A stretch of 20,000 nt of DNA from contig NC_057757.1 of assembly GCF_004010195.1 (NCBI RefSeq), positions 6,216,306 to 6,236,305 on the forward strand, written 5' to 3'. This document shows positions 1,273 through 19,660 of this stretch, one piece after another (the first letter of the stretch is position 1; each line of letters starts with the position of its first letter). Made by a program: the position numbers and the translations under genes. Below the pieces are notes generated by a model. The model worked only from the letters and a program-made list of their open reading frames with translations. It ran no database searches and was not told the origin of the DNA. This DNA is from Chiloscyllium plagiosum. Its lineage: Eukaryota.

Positions 1273-2947
1273 TGTCCGTTCCCCCCGCTCGTTCTCCATC
1301 ACTGTTCCCTCCCGGCCTTCTCTTTCTGTCTATTTTTCTGCCTCCCTGTCTCTGTCTCTTCACCCTCCTTTTTCTGTCTACCTCTGTCTGCCTTTTTGCC
1401 TATCTGTGCCACCCTCCCTCTGACTGAGCTGAGCAGAATCACATCAGGCTCTCAATCGCTCTGCCAGGCTCATGCCAGCCACTGGGATTGCTGCAATTAA
1501 CCTCAGTGCCTTCTGGGCCTTTTGGGCAAACATTAACCACGAGGGACTGTTGGAATTGTGGTGGGATGGGATCGGCATTGCCCAAACACACCTTGACAGG
1601 GAAATCTGCAACGTTTACTTCTGCTGGTATCCTGTGTGACCTGATCCTCTGTTCATTTGATTCTAGTACAGTCAGCCTCAGTATTTTCTGGTTAATGAGT
1701 GCTGGGGACAGAGGGGGGGGGGGTGCACAGTGGTAAGAATGTGTTGATCAGGACATCTGGAAGGAACTGAGTATACGTGAGGCCATCTCTCTCACCTGCT
1801 GCAGATCACCTCCCCTTCAGTTATGGCTGGGGGTTGGGGTCCATGGTCAGTCTGACCCTAGGTGCAGCCTGGGCCACGACCCAGTCTTGGCATGGGGTGC
1901 CCACAGAACCTCGCAAGTCTCCATTCTGCCTCCCAGAGCTGTTCACCTGCATGAGTCGACCAAAGGTCAGCTCTGATCAGGGTGGGATGTTTACTGCTCG
2001 TGACTCAGAAGGTTGTGTGTTCAACCAGATGGGGCGTTTTTGCGTTTGCATTTAAGGTGTGAATGTAGTCAGAGTCTTACTGGAAAGGACAAGTGAAGGG
2101 GATGTGCAAGCTAGCCCTCGCTGAGCTCTCCCTGTGCTAGAAAGGGTTGTTGAGAAGGTGGGAGTGTGTATCAGTTGCCCCTTAAGGGTGGCCTCTGGTC
2201 ATCAATGGCTGGTGGTCTTTCACCACACAAGTCCATTAGGGGGTGAGCTTAGAAGTCACTGATACAGGTAGTAATGTTGGCCAGAGGAGAGGGAGTTGGG
2301 TCAGTCTGTTTGGATGGTGTCACAGTGTAACATGTGCTAGGTCCTCTGGCATCCTTGTGTGTCATGTTTGTTCAGTTGGGCATCAAGAATGTATCAAGTG
2401 AGTCTCCCACCTCCATGCTCTCTCCTACTTGCTCCCATAGTCAGATTGGTGCTTCTTTGAACTTGTGTGGGGACACTAATGTCGAGGGTTGGGGGAGTGT
2501 AGGTGACCACAGGGGTTAGAGTAAGGCAGACATTCAGTGAATCGGACAATTTTGAATGCTCAGTTTGGTCACTTCACCTCTACCTCACCAAACGTGGCGA
2601 CAGGGAGCGGATGCATGCCTCACACTGGCTGCCACCCCCCTCCCTCCCCCACCCCCGGCAGAGGGAGGCAGCAACAATCATCTGGTCATTTTCAGGAAAA
2701 CAAATGTTGGATGCCTCCCGCTACCATCAGGCCGCTGGAGTCGTGATTGTCAGTGGCAGCAGAGATGGGAAGGTAAAGAGTGAATCCTGCTCTCTCTGGG
2801 TGTCACATCCCATGGGACATCCAGGCCCTCTCCCATGCACTCTGAGTGTATCAGCCTGCTCCATCACAGGAAGCTCCAACCCCAACTCCCTCCTCAGCAG
2901 AAACCCACAGTTCCTCCCTGTATTGGACATACCGAGTTTGAGAGGAT

Positions 2948-3260
2948 GGGGCTGCACAGTGGCTTAGTGGTTAGCGTTGTTGCCTCACAGGGCCAGGGAC
3001 CCGGGTTTGATTGCAGCCTCGGGTGATGTTTGCGCACACTCCCTGTGTCTGTGTGGGTTTCCTCTGGTTTCCACCCCTCGGTCCAAAGATGTGCAGGATT
3101 GGCCATGCTAAATTGCACCATAGTTTCCAGGGATGCGCAGCTTATAGATGGGTTAGCCATGAGAAAAGCAGGGTTACAAAGATTGGGTGAGCTGCTCTTC
3201 AGAGAGTCGGTGTGGACTCAATGGGCCAAATGGCCTGCTTCTGTACTGTCTGGATTCTGA
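2948..3260 (+). mobile_element. HE1/V-SINE-type tRNA-derived SINE, diverged
   Basis: A box gtggcttagtgg, B-box-like ccgggtttgatt, central tgtgtctgtgtgggtttcctc...gtccaaagatgtgcagg, CR1-like tail atgggccaaatggcctgcttctgtactg. Confidence 0.9.
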
Positions 3261-3931: not shown

Positions 3932-4254
3932 AGATTAGATTAGATTCCCTACAGTGTGGAAACAGGCCCTTCGGCCCAAACAGTCAACATCAACCCTCTG
4001 AAGAGTATCCCACCCCAGATCTATTTCTCTCTGACTAAAGTACCTAACACTATGGGCAATTTAGCATGGCAAGTCCACCCTAACCTGCACATCTTTGGAC
4101 TGTGTGAGGAAACCGGAGCACCCGGAGGAAACCCACGCAGACACGGGGAGAATGTGCAAACTCCACACAGACAGTCGCCCCGAGGTGGGAATTGAACCCG
4201 GGTCCCTGGCGCCGTGAGGCAGCTGTGCTGACCACTGAGCCACCGCGCCGCCCC
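3932..4254 (-). mobile_element. HE1/V-SINE-type SINE, full length
   Basis: Minus strand begins gggcggcgcggtggctcagtgg, B box gggttcaattcc, conserved central domain, CR1-derived tail ending in (AATCT)n. Confidence 0.95.
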
Positions 4255-9720: not shown

Positions 9721-10904
9721 TTTGATTATCTTATACGTCTCAATTAAGTCACCTCTCAAACTCCTTCTCTCCAATGAAAACAGCCTCAGCTCCCTCAGCC
9801 TTTCCTCGTAAGGCCTTCGCTCCATCCAGGCAATCCTAGTAAATTTCCTCTGAACCCTTTCCAAAGCTTCCACATCTTTCCTATAATGCGGTGACCAGAA
9901 CTGCACACAATACTCCAGGTGCAGCCTTCCCAGTGTCATGTACAGCTGAAGCGTGACCTCATGGTTCCGAAACCCAATCCCCCTACCCCATAAACGCCAA
10001 CACACCATATGCCTTCTGAACAACCCTATCAACCTGGCTGGCAACTTTCAGGGATTTATGCACCTGGACACAAATCTCTGTTCATCTACACTATCAAGAA
10101 TTTTACCATTAGCCGAGTTCTCTGCATTCCCGTTACTTCTTCTGAAGTGAATCACCTCACACTTTTCCCATATTAAACTCCATTTGCCACTTCTCAGCCC
10201 AGCTCTATGTCCCTATGTAACCTAAAACATCCTTCGGCACTATCCACAATTCTGTCTACCATGGTGTCATCTGCAAATTTACTAACCCATCCTTCCATGC
10301 CCATATCCGGATCATTAATAAAAAATGACAAACAGTGGTGCCCCAAAACAGATCCTTGCGGCACACTACTGGTAACTGAATTCCAGGATGAATATTTCCC
10401 ATCAACCACCACCCTCTGTCTTCTTTCAGCTAGCCAACTTCTGATCCAAACCGCTAAATCACCTTCAATTCTGAAACTCTGTATTTTGTGCAATAGCCTA
10501 CCGTGTGGAACCTTATCAAACGCCTTACTGAAGGTCATATACACCACATCAACCACTTTACCTTCACCCACCTGTTTTATCACTTTGTCTAAAGAACTCA
10601 AAGGTTAGTGAGGCACGACCTACCCTTCACAAAACCATGTTGGTTATCCCTAATCAAATTATTCCTTTCCAGATGATTATAAATCCTGTCTCTTATAACC
10701 TTTTCCAACACCTTACCTACAATCGAAGTAAGGCTCACTGGCCTATAATTGCCAGGGTTGTCCTGACTCTCCTTAAACAAGGGAACAACACTTGCAGTCC
10801 TCCAGTCTTCTGGCATTACTCCTGTTGACAATGATGCCATCAAAAAAAATCAAAGCCAAAGGCCCTGCAATCTCCTCCTTGGCTTCCCAGAGAATCAGAG
10901 GATA

Positions 10905-11883: not shown

Positions 11884-12845
11884 GTGAATGAAGTTTTTTT
11901 TCTGTTGATGGGACATGGGCATCTCTGCCTAGGCCACTGTTTATTCCTCCATCCTCAATTGTCTTTGCAAAGTACGGTGGTGAGTTGCCTTCTTGAATTG
12001 CTGCAGTCCACATGGCGTAGGTAGACCCACAGTGCAGTTAGGGAGGAATTTCCAGGATTTTGCCCCAGTGACTAAAGGAACAACAATACATTTCCAAGTT
12101 GGAGGGGAACTCGCAAGGGCTGGTGCTCTCATTGTATCTCCTGCCCTTGTCCTTCTAGATGATAAGGATTGAGAGTTTGGGTAAGTTGCTGCAGTGCACC
12201 TTACACACTGCATCAATGGCTGGGGAGTGAAAGGTGGATGTGGTGCCTATCAAGCGGGTTGTGTTGTCCTGGATGGTGATGAACTTCTTGAGTGTTGCTG
12301 GTCCTGCACTTCTCCAGGCAAGTGGGGAGTATTCCATCACACTCCTGACTTGTGCCTTGTAGATGATGGGCAGGCTTGGGGAGACCGGAGGGGACTTATT
12401 CAGTTATAACCACTGATTTGGTTCTGCTGTTCACAATGTCAAATAGCACGTCCTGGCTGATACTATCTAGTCCTATTAGGATCCTCAAAAGCTGATCAGT
12501 TTTTGTCACTTATCAGCCCAAGCCTGAATGTAGTCCAGATTTTGCTGTGTTTGAACATAAACTGCTTCCATTTCTGAAGTGTCATGAATGGTGTTGAATA
12601 TTGTGCAACCAGAAGCGAACATGCCCACCTCTGACTTTATGCTGGAGGGACAGTCATTGATGAAGCTTCTGAAGATTGCTGGGCCTGGGACACTTTCCTA
12701 AGGACCTTGGGCTCTTGTGGTGCAGTGGTAGTATCCCTACGTCTGAGTCAGGGGGTCCAGATTCAAGTCCCACCTACTCCAGAGGTGTCTAGTAGCATCG
12801 TTGAACAAATTGGGTAGAATGTATCTACCTCCAAGGAACTCCCGT
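11884..12845 (-). mobile_element. Old CR1/L2-group LINE 3' fragment (same family as 14455-16820)
   Basis: ORF 12155-12340 MEYSPLAWRSAGPATLKKFITIQD parallels ORF 16181 APTTLKKLNSIQD; extensive reverse-complement similarity to the + copy. Confidence 0.8.
12708..12827 (+). mobile_element. Short (~120 bp) tRNA-derived SINE-like element
   Basis: A box tggtgcagtgg, B box gattcaagtcc; flanked by degenerate direct repeats cctaaggacct / tccaaggaact. Confidence 0.75.
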
Positions 12846-13190
12846 GGTAAGAGTTCTACAGCTTCTAGAATCTGAGGTTTAAAAATCACCTACTGCCAAT
12901 GATAATCTCACCATCTAATCTATCATTTTGAGTGTTAATTTAAAATTCTCTTGCTCATTGGTTCTGGGTCCATCCAGGAAAGGCATGAGAAAACATGCAG
13001 TTAACTTTCACGTGTTTATGTTAAATGTCGGACTTGCCCAAAAATACTTGATTCATGAAACTTGTAAATGTACATTCAAAGCATTTTACAGGAAATGCAA
13101 TACAATTCAACTTCTCTCCATTCAGTATCTTGGGTGCATTGAAGAGAATTTGCAGTATTCAGTGCAGACTGATGCTCAGACCAGTGGTAC

Positions 13191-13364
13191 TTAGAGTCAT
13201 AGAGATGTACAGCATAGAAACAAACCCTTCAGTCCAACTCATCCCTGCCGATCAGATATCCTAAATTAATCTATTTCCATTTACCAGCATTTGGTTCATA
13301 TCCCTCTGAACCCTTCATTTTCGTGTACCCATCCAAATGCCTTTTAAGTGTTGTAATTGTACCT
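13191..13364 (-). mobile_element. CR1 LINE 3' end fragment
   Basis: tagagtcatagagatgtacagcatagaaaca... is the reverse complement of the CR1 3' terminus seen at ~6720-6750 and ~9690-9717. Confidence 0.9.
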
Positions 13365-14099
13365 TTTACCACTGGGACTCCTTTTCAAGGCCAGAGAATT
13401 GATCCGACCCCTCAGTGAGAACTTTCACACTCGGTCAAAGTTCACAATGGCCGTTGTTACCTCAGACCCTGAAATATCGGGTCACGACCTCACTGGGGGT
13501 CCTGAAGCCAACTTTGGGAAGCCCTGGCTCAAACTGTGGAGGTTGCTGGCGAGCGCCAATGACTTTGTCAACAGCGTAGTCACTTGGGTAATGTGTAAGG
13601 CACTGGATCAAACTGGGAGAGGGGGCGTCCTGCCGTAAAAGGGGTCCGGGTTCGAGATTTTTGGTTGCAAACTCTTGAGGCTGCAATGCGCTATGGGCAG
13701 CTCCGAATGAGTGCTCAGCTCCGAGACCACTTTAACTACTTTTTCCCAAACTGTGAGTGGGAACTAAATGACTCAACCTTAGGGCCTGGATCCTGCAGCA
13801 CCAACAATAGTAATCCTCGCATGTTTTTGAAAAGTGATCACTCCTCTCACAAGGCTTTGTGTTTCTCTCGCTGTGTTCTTCGAGATGTACTCCCCCAGCT
13901 ACCTACTCTTTCAGTTCTGTCCCACCCTCTCCCCCGTCCTGACAATTCTCATTGACGGATCATGCTTGAAATCAAGTCCTGGGAAAGACTTCGGAGCCCC
14001 TGGATTGGATCGAGAAGACGTATGATTGGTTTAAATGTATCCAGAGACACTATGCAAATCACACCTATTGTTTGGGGCTAGTAGGTTTGAAGGGATGGT

Positions 14100-14316
14100 T
14101 GAAACTTTATTGCTGGAACAGCACAGCAGGTCAGGCAGCATTCAGGGAACAGGAGATTCGACGTTTCGGGCACAGGCCCTTCTTCAGGTTCCTGAAGAAG
14201 GGCCTGTGTCCGAAACGTCGAATCTCCTGTTCCCTGGATGCTGCCTGACCTGCTGTGCTGTTCCAGCAATAAAGTTTCAACTTTGATCTCCAGCATCTGC
14301 AGACCTCACTTTCTCC
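14100..14316 (+). mobile_element. Young palindromic Penelope-like non-autonomous element with 13-bp TSD
   Basis: Arms 14099-14188 and 14191-14280 (90 bp, 2 mismatches, 2-nt loop), unpaired 3' tail to 14316; exact TSD TTGAAGGGATGGT at 14087-14099 and 14317-14329. Confidence 0.85.
14186..14225 (+). ncRNA. Minimal type I hammerhead ribozyme motif
   Basis: aggttc-CTGAAGA-A-gggc(ctgt)gtcc-GAAA-cGTC-gaatct: intact core, stem II, stem I aggttc/gaatct, loopless palindromic ACGT stem III; predicted cleavage after C14219. A mirror core lies on the minus strand. Confidence 0.7.
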
Positions 14317-14534
14317 TTGAAGGGATGGTATAAGTCTTATCAACATTAACTCTTTGGTGTCACTGTGGACAAATATATTAACTCACTGAGTTGGGTAGTA
14401 ATGAGTTTAAATGGTAAATGGAGATGCAAAGTTTTACTGCAGGTTGAAGTCATACCCAGCACGTAGGAATGTGGTTGTGGTTGTTGGAGGTCAGTCATCT
14501 CCGCTCCAGGACATCTCTGCAGGAGATCTTCAGG

Positions 14535-14769
14535 TAGAAATTTTCCTTACTATCCTATTCAGAGACGTTAAACACCCCTAGAATAAGTGGCACTTGAACC
14601 CAGGCCTCCTGGCTCAGAGATAGGGATAATACCAGTGTGTCACAAGTACTTGACTGCCTCAGGATAGTATTTCCTAATCAACCATTCCAGAGATTTTATT
14701 GCGCACCTCTGGAGCATGTGGGATTTGAACCCAGGCCGCTTGGCTCACTACCACTGTGCCTCAAGAACT
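14535..14769 (-). mobile_element. Tandem pair of the short tRNA-derived element (14535-14650, 14664-14769)
   Basis: Both units contain ttgaacccaggcc (B box, reverse complement) and match 12708-12827; separated and flanked by GGAGTTCCTCAGG-like 13-mers. Confidence 0.75.
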
Positions 14770-14813
14770 GGAGTTCATCAGGATCATGTCCTAGGCTCAA
14801 CTACATTCAGTTG

Positions 14814-15111
14814 AATAGAATAGAATCCTACAGTGTGGCCCAACAAGTCCACACTGACCCTACAAAGAGTATTCCACCCAAACCCATTCCCTATTAGTCT
14901 ACATTTACCTCTGACTAATACAGCTAACCTTGGATACTATGGACTATTTAGCATGGCCAATTCACCTAACCTGCACAACTTTGGACTATGGGAGGGAACC
15001 GGAGCACCGAAATGGGGAGATCTTCGCACGGACAGTTGCTGAGGCTAGAATCGAACCCAGGTCCCTGGTGCTGTGAGGCAGCAGTGCTAACTACTGAGCT
15101 ACCTTGCTGCC
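14814..15111 (-). mobile_element. HE1/V-SINE-type SINE
   Basis: A/B boxes on minus strand, central domain, (ATTCT)n tail; candidate TSD CAGTTG 14808-14813 and 15112-15117. Confidence 0.92.
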
Positions 15112-15249
15112 CAGTTGCTTCATCAATGACCTACCATCCATCATGAGGTCAGAAGTAGGAATGTTCTCTGTTAGCTGGGCAATGTTCAGTCCCATTCACA
15201 ACCCCTCAGATACAGAAGCAGTCCATGTCCCTATGCAGCAAGACCTGGA

Positions 15250-15622
15250 TTTTTGATTTTGATTTTATTGTCAAGTGTGTTCAGTACAAAAGTACAGGAG
15301 TACAGTGAAAAGTGAACAATGCCGCCACACAAGGTGCCATCTTAGGTACAAGTAGGGAGGTATAGAATCTTCAGAACAAGTTTGAAAGAAAGAACAAAGT
15401 TAAAAGTTAACCATTGCAGCAATCCTAGTGCAGTGACACCTTGTTAGTTTTAAGTAGAAAATAAACAAGTAAAGCTGAAAGTTTAAACAATTCTTAAGTT
15501 CTTAGCCACAGTGAAACTGCACAGACAGGACCCACCTAAAGACCGGAAGTCCACTCTGAGGCCACGCTGGGCCAAGAGACTGCCATACCTCACAGGCGGG
15601 TTGCCCCACCAGGTCTGTGCTT
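15250..15622 (-). mobile_element. Unclassified non-LTR-type repeat, 3' part
   Basis: Minus-strand AATAAA (15264-15269) then (ATCAAA)-like tail; shares gccatcttaggtaca (15336-15350) with 18226-18240; interrupts the LINE. Confidence 0.55.
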
Positions 15623-15632
15623 GACTACATTC

Positions 15633-15902
15633 CCGACTCAGGCGACTGACTGTGTGGAGTTTGCACGTTCTCCCCGTGTCTGCGTGGGTTTCCTCCGGGG
15701 GCTCCGGTTTCCTCCCACAGTCCAAAGATGTGCAGGTCAGGTGAATTGGCCATGCTAAATTGCCCGTAGTGTGTTAGGTAAAGGGGGAAATGTAGGGGTA
15801 TGGGTGGGTTACGCTTCGGTGGGTCGGTGTGGACTTGTTGGGCCGAAGGGCCTGTTTCCACACTGTAAGTAATCTAATCTAATCTAAGTAATCTAATCTA
15901 AT
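15633..15902 (+). mobile_element. 5'-truncated young HE1-type SINE
   Basis: Central domain plus CR1 tail with (TAATC)n repeats; exact 8-bp direct repeat CTACATTC at 15625-15632 and 15903-15910. Confidence 0.95.
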
Positions 15903-16597
15903 CTACATTCAAGCATGGGTTAGTTAGTGACGCGTAATATTTGCACCAGGCAATGACTATCTCAAACAAGAGAGAATCTAACCATTTCCCTATTGATGTT
16001 TATTGGCATTACTATCACTGAACCCCACTCCCGCCACCAACTAGCAACATCCTGGCATTTGCAAAGATGCTAGATCAGGCCAGCGTTCTGCACCTGCATA
16101 AGCAAGTCAAAAGCATGGAATTATGTGACAAGTAGTTCACCTCCTGACACCCCACTATTCACAAGGCACAAGCCAGGAATATGATGGAACGTTTGACGCT
16201 TGCCAGGAAGCCTGAAGCTCCAACAACGCTCAAGAAGCTCAACAGCATCCAGGACAAAACAGTCCCAACTCACTTGCAACCCATCCACATCTTAAACACC
16301 CACTCCCTCCACCACCGACATTCAGTGTGCATCGCCTACAAGAAGCACTACAATGACTCATCAAGGCTCCTCCGACCTTGGTGCTTTCCAACCCTCAATG
16401 TTTACTGCCTTGAAGGACAAGGGCTGCAGACATATCGAAACACCACCACTTGCAAGTTCCCCTCTCAGCCACACACTATCCTGACATCCCTTCAATGTCG
16501 CTGGGTCAAAGTCCCACAATTCCCTCCTCCCTAACTGCCCCATAACTGCAGTGCTTTAAGAAGGTAGCTCCCCAGCCCCTTCTCAAGATAAATGGGG

Positions 16598-16757
16598 ATG
16601 TGGATGTAGATGTAGGTTTGCTCACTGAGCTGGATATTTCATTTCCAGACGTTCCGTCACCCTACTAGGTAACATTTTCAGTGGGCCTCCGAGCGAAGCA
16701 CTGCTGGTAATCCCTGCTTTCTGTTTATATGTTTGGGTTTCTTTGGGTTGGGGATGT
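16598..16757 (-). mobile_element. Penelope-like 3' fragment with mutated hammerhead
   Basis: Minus strand ca-CTGAAAA-t-gttacc(tagtag)ggtgac-GGAA-cGTC-tg (16646-16683): stem II intact, two core substitutions; (ACATCY)n-like tail; interrupts the LINE 3'UTR. Confidence 0.6.
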
Positions 16758-17108
16758 AATTAGGGGTGGGCAAAAATGCTGCTCCAACCAGCGATACCCA
16801 CATCCCATGAAAGAATTTAAAATACTCTAAAAAAAAGACACAGACCATAAAAAAGTGAAACACAACTTCAAGTTCACTTCTAGGTTGATGCAGTTGTGTG
16901 AGACTTGTCTTAAACTTTGGTTGGACCAAATATTTTGAACAGGTCGGGTCTCCATTTTATAAGAAGAATTCAGCAGCAATGAAGGAGTTACTAAAGCAGA
17001 CTCACAAGGATTATAGTTAAACTGAGATCACAAGAAGCTGAACAGGGTCTTTCTTGAGTTATTTGCCTGAAGGCAGATTCAACCTACAGCTCACGTCCAG
17101 GTTCAGCA

Positions 17109-17436
17109 AGAACAGAATCCCTAAAGTGCAGATACAGGCCATTCAGCCCATTGAGTCTATATTGACACTCCAAAGAGCACCCCCAACCACACCTTATCCC
17201 CATATTTCCCATGGCAAATCCACCTAACCTGCACATCCCTGGACATTGTGGAATAATTTAGCACGGCTAACCCACCTAACATGCACATCTTTGGACTGTG
17301 GGAGAAAATCAGAACATCCACAGACTCAGGGAGAATATGCATACTCCACATGGACCATTATCTGATGCTGGAATTGAACCAAAGTGCCTGGTGCTGTGAG
17401 GCAGCAGTGCCAACCACTGAGCCACTGTGCTGCCCC
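17109..17436 (-). mobile_element. HE1/V-SINE-type SINE, diverged
   Basis: Minus strand begins ggggcagcacagtggctcagtggttggcactgctgcctcacagc; B box ggttcaattcc; CR1-like tail. Confidence 0.92.
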
Positions 17437-17485: not shown

Positions 17486-18100
17486 TAAGACTTCGGAGTG
17501 GAAGCAAGGCCATTCGGTCCATCGAGTCCACTCCACCATTTACAGTAATCATGGCTGATGGACATTTCAATTCCACTTACTCGCCCTCTCACCGTAGCCC
17601 TTAATTCCTTGCAAGATCATGAATTTATCGATCTCTGCCTTGAAGATACCTAATTTCCCAGCCTCCACTGCACTCCGTGGCAATGAATTCCACAGGCCTA
17701 CTGCTGTCTGGCTGAAGGAATGTCTCCTCATCTCCGTTCTAAATTGACCCCCTCTAATTTTAAGGCTATGCTCACGGATCCTACTCTCCCTGCCCAACAG
17801 AAACAACTTCCCAGCGTCCACCCTTTCTAAGCCATGCGATATCTTGTAAGAGTGGTACTTAGAGTCATAGAGATGTACAGCATAGAAACAAAGGCTATGC
17901 TCACGGATCCTACTCTCCCTGCCCAACAGAAACAACTTCCCAGCGTCCACCCTTTCTAAGCCATGCGATATCTTGTAAGTTTCTAATAGATCTTCCCTTA
18001 ACCTTCTAAACTCTAATGAATACAATCCCAGGATCCTCAGCCAACATCATATGTTAGGTCTACCATTCCAGGGATCCATCTGTGCGAATCTCCGCTGACA
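17486..18100 (-). mobile_element. CR1 LINE 3' fragment with internal duplication
   Basis: ORF 17567-18025 YSLEFRRLREDLLETYK...RRHSFSQTAVGLWNSLP. Confidence 0.92.
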
Positions 18101-18834: not shown

Positions 18835-19660
18835 GGGATAAAAATAAGGAGGTCTCACTACAAACATACAATGCTAAAAATCACACAACACCAGGTTATA
18901 GTCCAACATGTTTATTATATACAAGACAGTAGTTAGGCCACAGCTGGAATTCTGTGAACAGTTTTAGTCCTATTATCTAAGGAATGACATCCTGGCTTTG
19001 AAGTCTAGATTAGAGTGGTGCTAGAAAAGCACAGCAGGTCAGCCAGCATACGAGGAGCAGGAAAATCGACGTTTCGGGCAAATGTCCTTCATCAGGAATG
19101 GAGATTGCTCCATCAGGAATTGCTCCATTCCTGATGAAGGGCTTTTGCCCGAAACTTCGATTTTCCTGCTCCTCGGATGCTGCCTGACCTGCTGTGCTTT
19201 TCCAGCATCACTCTTATCTAGACTCTGCCTTCCAGCATCTGCAGTCCTCACTTTTGCCTCTCCTGGCATTGGAGGCAGTCCAGAGAAGGGTCACTAGACT
19301 GATCCTGGAAATGGAGGGACTGCCTTATCAGGAGAAATTGAGGCTGTACTCATTGGAGTTTAGATGAATGAGAGGCGACCTTATTAAAACATGTAATTTT
19401 CTTAGGGAATATGACAGGGTAGATGTGGAGACCTTTGGAAGAGTCTATGACCAGGGAGCATCATCTCTGAACAAGGGACTGTCCAGGAGGAGAAAGTGAG
19501 GTCCAGCAAAGGGACTGTCCAGTTAAGGATTTCTATCTCTCAGAAAGCAGTGAATTTGTGGAATTCTTCAATGCAGAGGGCAGTAGAGGTCTTTAGTTGG
19601 CTTGTGGGTGATCAGATCTCATCCAATGGAGGAGTGGTCAATGGGCTGAATGGCCTCAGA
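18835..19660 (+). mobile_element. Old CR1 LINE 3' fragment hosting three small insertions
   Basis: gttaggccacagctggaattctgtgaacag (VRPQLEFC), ctgtactcattggagtttagatgaatgagaggcgacctt, 3' end atgggctgaatggcct. Confidence 0.85.
19002..19260 (+). mobile_element. Palindromic Penelope-like element with hammerhead cores, related to 14100-14316
   Basis: Arms 19002-19103 and 19123-19224; + core CTGATGA-A-gggc(tttt)gccc-GAAA-cttc (19131-19158); tail ccagcatctgcagtcctcactttt; degenerate TSD tcctggctttgaag (18990-19003) / tcctggcattggag (19261-19274). Confidence 0.85.

Follow-up and report, generated by a model that had tools for sequence, protein, structure and literature searches.

The closest described counterparts of the element reported here are the SINEU elements of crocodilians, which prefer a site in Mariner-N4_AMi; the copies flanked by this target are reported as 90% for SINEU-3, 23% for SINEU-1 and 13% for SINEU-2 (PMC4494074). 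The same source describes a 16-bp target site duplication (TSD) for SINEU-3 with tandem copies sandwiching it, names Tx1-Mar as the proposed partner, and counts an element as target-preferring when the target is present in >20% of its flanks (PMC4494074). Target-preferring LINEs of the Tx1 clade are also listed there, namely Tx1L in Tx1D, Tx1-8_Crp and Tx1-4_AMi in LTR elements and Tx1-9_AMi in Harbinger elements (PMC4494074). CR1-like LINEs are reported as dominant in a shark genome (10.1101/443036), and a further report (PMC5786205) added nothing on the present element.

The element occurs as three units, A, B and C, in a stretch of 20,000 nucleotides (the window). Like the SINEUs, it is a SINE that recurs at a single position within a different transposon and runs opposite to it, with tandem copies that sandwich the duplication, and its duplication resembles the 16-bp TSD of SINEU-3. 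The likeness extends to the difficulty of interpretation, as only 13–23% of SINEU-1 and SINEU-2 copies lie at the target and hitch-hiking is the rival explanation there too. However, SINEU heads derive from snRNA (U1/U2), whereas the units here have tRNA-type A and B boxes and Rfam matched no snRNA family to any of the three, so the element is not a SINEU member. Further, the SINEU target is a Mariner element and the target here is the reverse transcriptase (RT)-coding motif of a LINE, and targeting is measured for SINEU, with Tx1-Mar as proposed partner, whereas here the targeted fraction is a bound and the partner putative. If preference is the cause, the element may work like the weakly preferring SINEUs. 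With the Tx1-clade LINEs of the same source it would share an endonuclease preferring a site inside another mobile element; those LINEs are autonomous and encode the enzyme, whereas only a short non-coding passenger is seen here. Ordinary SINE2 families have similar A and B boxes, aligned heads and dispersed copies, but the element is much shorter, has no detectable body or tail in common with them and shows a long duplication at these loci. No SINE target, or other target, inside the RT of a LINE was found in the literature searched, and short motifs of the element returned unrelated papers only. The family is undescribed in that literature; Repbase, Dfam and SINEBase lay outside the search, so it may already be catalogued. 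We tentatively regard it as an old SINE of tRNA type that partially prefers the GVPQG-coding site of the LINE, the dimer having arisen by sequential insertion, and our confidence in this reading falls a little short of even.

Decayed LINEs and SINEs crowd the window, which is animal DNA, and we take its repeats to resemble those of cartilaginous fishes. The features around the two loci are collected in Table 1.

Table 1. Units, target copies and host LINE segments in the window
Feature	Position	Strand	Remarks
Unit C	12709..12824	+	SINE copy, A box 12718–12728, B box 12760–12770; antisense to host LINE
Unit A	14538..14651	-	SINE copy; also at the orthologous site in organism C
Unit B	14668..14770	-	SINE copy; 12-nt deletion between A and B boxes
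Left target copy	14523..14537	+	15 nt, one base lost
Middle target copy	14652..14667	+	16 nt, between units A and B
Right target copy	14771..14786	+	16 nt
Target copy LINE-downstream of unit C	12693..12708	-	16 nt, then host RT (SVxGP...)
Target-like sequence LINE-upstream of unit C	12825..12841	-	17 nt; host target and CR1-type 3' coding end match about equally
Plus-strand host, RT region upstream of site	14437..14522	+	highest summed depth in all three contig runs
Plus-strand host, remainder	14787..16838	+	pieces 14787–14812, ~15113–15250 and ~15895–16838 with poly(A); broken up by later insertions, SINEs among them
Minus-strand host LINE	11893..12692	-	begins just past the GVPQG site, ends in a short poly(A)
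Flank upstream of unit C	12842..12990 (end approximate)	-	host LINE not detectable; probably decayed 3' coding region of a different CR1-type LINE

The preliminary description of this DNA held that the units are homologous and lie antisense to a single LINE family, which is borne out by profile searches and by alignment of the hosts. Each unit is ~115 nt long and none has a poly(A) tail; aligned identity is 80/111 (72%) between C and A, 72/105 (69%) between C and B, and 76/102 (75%) between A and B. A profile built from the three finds exactly three full copies in the 20-kb window, which are those three, and the tail profile, within the window, matches only them. The proposed tRNA origin of the units fared less evenly. 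An A box (1–2 mismatches) and a B box (0–1 mismatches) are present in all three, and the unit head aligns in a profile search with the head of another, more abundant SINE in the window (E 0.0036). Against this, ARAGORN called no tRNA gene, Rfam gave no tRNA match, and the fold of the unit consensus is not a cloverleaf. The unit is best read as an old, dispersed, non-autonomous retroposon with a probable tRNA-type pol III head (SINE2). DNA-pattern scans with the unit and the host LINE, together with protein-led locus scans, returned no loci in prokaryote, viral and metagenome collections. An open frame that spans the dimer matched a single unrelated repeat protein in protein searches and otherwise nothing, and a scorpion-toxin domain in Pfam (E 0.03, below cut-off) was taken as chance. 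A second tRNA-headed SINE, which we presume to be HE1/V-SINE-like, is more abundant in the window, with at least five copies (2946–3260, 4023–4253, 14813–15112, 15629–15885 and 17200–17435), two of which interrupt the plus-strand host.

The 13-mers of the target noted earlier at 14522–14534, 14651–14663 and 14770–14782, and cctaaggacct at 12697–12707, were all located as written. The duplication fits 16 nt better than 13, with a one-base shift and with GTAG included. These four letters are ambiguous and could belong to the target or to the unit 3' end, and one dimer elsewhere has a unit ending before GTAG. The duplication is 15–16 nt around units A and B and uncertain on one side of C, and the junction register on the head side is identical in the three units. 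At 14523–14786 the layout is a tandem array that sandwiches the duplication, target-unit-target-unit-target; this is the one locus at which the spacer was recognised as the target. A G-to-A change relative to the common LINE sequence recurs in three of the five target copies. The site was also said to encode the GVPQG motif of the RT (GVPQG/SVLGP), and this stands up well: the downstream flank aligns right after VPQG of an RVT_1 protein (E 3e-6, pairwise), and the empty-site consensus of LINE contigs continues in frame through GVPQG/SVLG. The peptide of the plus-strand host upstream of the site did not align to the expected place in an RVT_1 relative. Elsewhere in the window, a different CR1-type LINE with an RVT_1 match (10197–10604) has its own VPQG site empty. 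By eye, and maybe by chance, a 10-nt stretch in the unit head resembles the LINE just downstream of the insertion point (regions 12725–12740 and 14635–14790), so that the target copy in a filled allele could come to lie within a hairpin.

The hosts belong to one LINE family and are 72–76% alike over three segments. Their RT piece found no homologue in a protein search, and the C-terminal piece matched five unnamed proteins. The units had been described as flanked on both sides by the host LINE, which holds for the plus-strand copy; at unit C the host similarity ends, upstream, at the motif. There, the 30 nt downstream of the target (the 12693 side) match the plus-strand host better than any of 2000 shuffles, while the upstream flank, in anchored shuffle tests against the same host, gave p 0.04–0.52 over five lengths, and 70/500. 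Compared with the CR1-type 3' regions in the window, the upstream flank scored 2/500 for one of the three copies and 0.43 and 0.61 for the other two, and no match came from a profile built on the three CR1 copies. The minus-strand locus is one of two things, a filled LINE whose upstream part has been lost or a composite that was truncated.

Several other features of the same region were observed. In the minus-strand host, at 12400–12505, ~250 nt of LINE are gone after WADK and ~110 nt of other sequence stand in their place, the minus-strand translation of which resembles, by eye, a CR1-type 3' coding piece. The ~700 nt between the hosts (13370–14090) have no match elsewhere in the window and contain short open frames. 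Near-perfect, related palindromes lie at 14098–14281 (arms of 91 nt, 98%) and 19002–19224 (102 nt, 92%); they are apparently head-to-head copies of one short repeat, and Rfam gave sub-threshold miRNA-like matches only. At 17762–17979, in a CR1 3' region, an exact 89-nt direct repeat recurs at a spacing of 129 nt, and the 42 nt between its copies are identical to 13183–13224, 4.7 kb away; this points to either a recent templated insertion or an artefact of assembly.

For family copies elsewhere, contigs of related organisms A, B and C were aligned to 14330–14812 at 80% likeness (11883, 10321 and 7422 records; runs X1, X12 and X17), with summed depths that are not usable as copy numbers. Run X1 may itself be the sample from which the window derives. 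LINE contigs that depart at 14534 (355, 273 and 238) go on into the empty-site sequence, as do 7 reads. Between 14529 and 14536 the summed depth drops in the three runs from 52049 to 16, from 175965 to 25 and from 10325 to 21, and 0.01–0.2% of the depth crosses the LINE–unit junction of the plus-strand locus. The great majority of the host LINE copies aligned are empty at the site. The fall samples mainly LINE copies near the consensus and old filled hosts fail the 80% threshold, so little can be read about them from the low depth at 14536. Raw RNA consists of 57 reads from one poly(A) single-cell run, all <95% alike and on both strands, and is no evidence on expression.

Contigs of the unit depart at 14626 (326, 254 and 233) and 14634 (298, 237 and 215 in X1, X12 and X17) and continue through the head. 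Beyond the 5' end of the unit, the consensus is all T or A in each of the three runs; for the contigs departing at 14634 it comprises 13 letters with an agreement of 0.49–0.50 (0.49–0.55 over both departure points), as against 0.60–0.69 for homologous continuations. This consensus describes the head (5') side of the unit, the 3' flank having no consensus among the 24 of 942 loose-end rows listed. Most family copies thus have unrelated DNA around them, rich in A immediately before the head, the outcome that the preliminary description had set against its own headline of a sequence-specific SINE that disables the RT of LINEs, and with most copies off the site genome-wide there is at most a partial site preference. 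In simulations calibrated to the agreement of the homologous rows, an all-A/T flank consensus appeared in ≤2% of replicates if ≥40% of copies were targeted and in 0–20% at 30%, and was frequent at ≤20% targeted if the background was T-rich; the three runs share orthologous loci and are not independent. The simulations are compatible with a targeted share of 5–25%, the fraction is bounded under ~30–40%, and ≥40% is very unlikely.

Two joints between LINE and unit are found in the contigs, from 14500 to 14602 (LINE-left to unit) and from 14747 to 14787 (unit to LINE-right), in one contig each in runs X1 and X12. Locus C does not yield them (18/38 and 18/26 matches), and they hint at further filled loci, the intervening letters not being given. 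By our reading, 9 of the 15 joints listed (of 86) are shaped as head-to-tail dimers at other loci; the sole dimer spacer with printed letters among those listed is not the LINE target. The joints listed also include one from 14639 to 14787 in X12.

Organism C carries unit A at the orthologous site (record 24, 14493–14623, 9 differences in 130 nt), and organism B has the junction of A, target and B (record 16, 14640–14733, 1 difference in 94 nt). The insertions are therefore much older than the species splits, and all copies seen are old and dead. The contig of organism C (775 nt) stops aligning at 14623, inside unit A, and has ~645 nt of further sequence, so the dimer may differ there. Site patterns among the units are 18 for AB|C, 13 for AC|B and 14 for BC|A in 45 informative columns (one-sided p 0.21). 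A and B thus appear no closer to each other than to C, which fits three separate insertions or a very early duplication. Relative to four relatives, both hosts differ at 4 of 41 residues, with 3.95 expected, and 2 of these are identical. The lack of an excess of shared changes in unit or host would suit separate insertions, and also a composite copied before mutating. A recent tandem duplication giving A and B was rejected, given their 75% identity and the dimer junction in organism B. Chance was rejected as well: a random insertion within 2 nt of the site in one orientation has a probability of 2.5e-5 to 2.5e-4 per insertion, assuming 4e4–3e5 LINE sites in a genome of 3–4 Gb.

Under the favoured reading of a partial preference, the steps would follow established target-primed reverse transcription. 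The SINE RNA would be made by pol III, and the endonuclease of a partner LINE, Tx1-like by analogy, would nick the abundant site above chance and prime reverse transcription of that RNA; profile searches found no partner LINE in the window. Staggered nicks would duplicate ~16 bp, and because the duplication regenerates the site, a second SINE could then insert, giving the target-unit-target-unit-target layout. We infer the nicking, the priming, the duplication and the second insertion here. The hosts were most likely dead already, in which case the site would be a safe and abundant landing pad and not a means of switching off active LINEs. The LINE sequence upstream of the site at the minus-strand locus would have gone with a subsequent deletion, or through 5' truncation of the host. 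In favour of preference, no young composite subfamily is seen in the depth across 14529–14536, and the two LINE–unit joints, the dimer-shaped joints and the SINEU precedent point the same way. Against it, the bulk flank consensus is unlike the target, so no general preference for the motif is visible.

An old composite of LINE and SINE, which the preliminary description had offered as its alternative, is the main rival. A single SINE insertion would have hit the RT site of a LINE copy that was being transcribed, the broken copy would have kept its 3' end and retrotransposed in trans as a minority subfamily, an early dimer would have formed by slippage or unequal exchange between the 16-nt duplications, and the minus-strand locus would be a 5'-truncated composite joined to a CR1 piece at short homology. 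The shared head-side register would fit such a history and speak against preference, as would the equal divergence of units (69–75%) and hosts (72–76%). The minus-strand locus starts exactly at the motif, where its host likeness ends, as a truncated composite could, and no targeting enzyme is needed, since the bulk of the family has A-rich, unrelated flanks. The G-to-A change in the target copies would also be expected under common descent, although one such match in ~45 positions is not unusual. Set against these points, no base change relative to the family majority is, by eye, common to all three units at the positions shown, the hosts lack an excess of shared changes, and the dimer needs an extra event yet A and B show no excess either. 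Further, no sibling with the plus-locus junction was found among the closer LINE copies, judging from the small share of depth that crosses it. We consider the composite unlikely, though it is a serious contender.

A narrower form of targeting holds that one subfamily, or one of two partner enzymes, is truly specific for the 16-bp site, with hundreds to thousands of independent antisense insertions; we would judge this improbable. Ancient local copying or gene conversion supposes that a filled LINE was inverted and duplicated nearby, or that the filled state was copied between neighbouring LINEs, long before the sampled species split, so that the two loci represent one event. The loci are 1.7 kb apart in inverted orientation, all parts are equally old and the minus-strand host is rearranged, as such copying would have it. 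Yet the similarity is confined to LINE and unit, shared changes are not in excess, and there are joints elsewhere that fit filled loci; with hosts this diverged, the recent local inverted duplication that had been raised as a way to undo the headline is excluded, and the ancient form seems to us very doubtful. Strict sequence-specific targeting of the LINE RT motif by the whole family, with disabling of the RT, would accord with all three full copies in the window being at the site and with a tandem form and a duplication of 16 bp that recall SINEU-3, which is at its target in 90% of copies (PMC4494074), but it is refuted by the all-T/A consensus of 215–326 contigs per row in 3/3 runs, the flank simulations and the almost entirely empty LINE copies, and could be saved only if the contigs were another family sharing just the head, so it is contradicted as it stands and we give it next to no credence, the weaker partial preference alone surviving from that headline.

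Regardless of which reading is correct, LINE copies that are almost all empty imply no apparent effect of the insertions on the success of the host LINE. The composite, if true, would be a routine old subfamily, useful only for repeat annotation. If the reading of a specific subfamily is true, the element would be a tRNA-type SINE whose target is the conserved RT motif of a different retrotransposon; no target of that class came up in the literature searched. The preference, if real, would point to an endonuclease with a 16-bp duplication and would extend the list of sites favoured by target-preferring retroposons to a coding motif of a LINE; such a motif is conserved, and the host element has little room to escape by mutating it.
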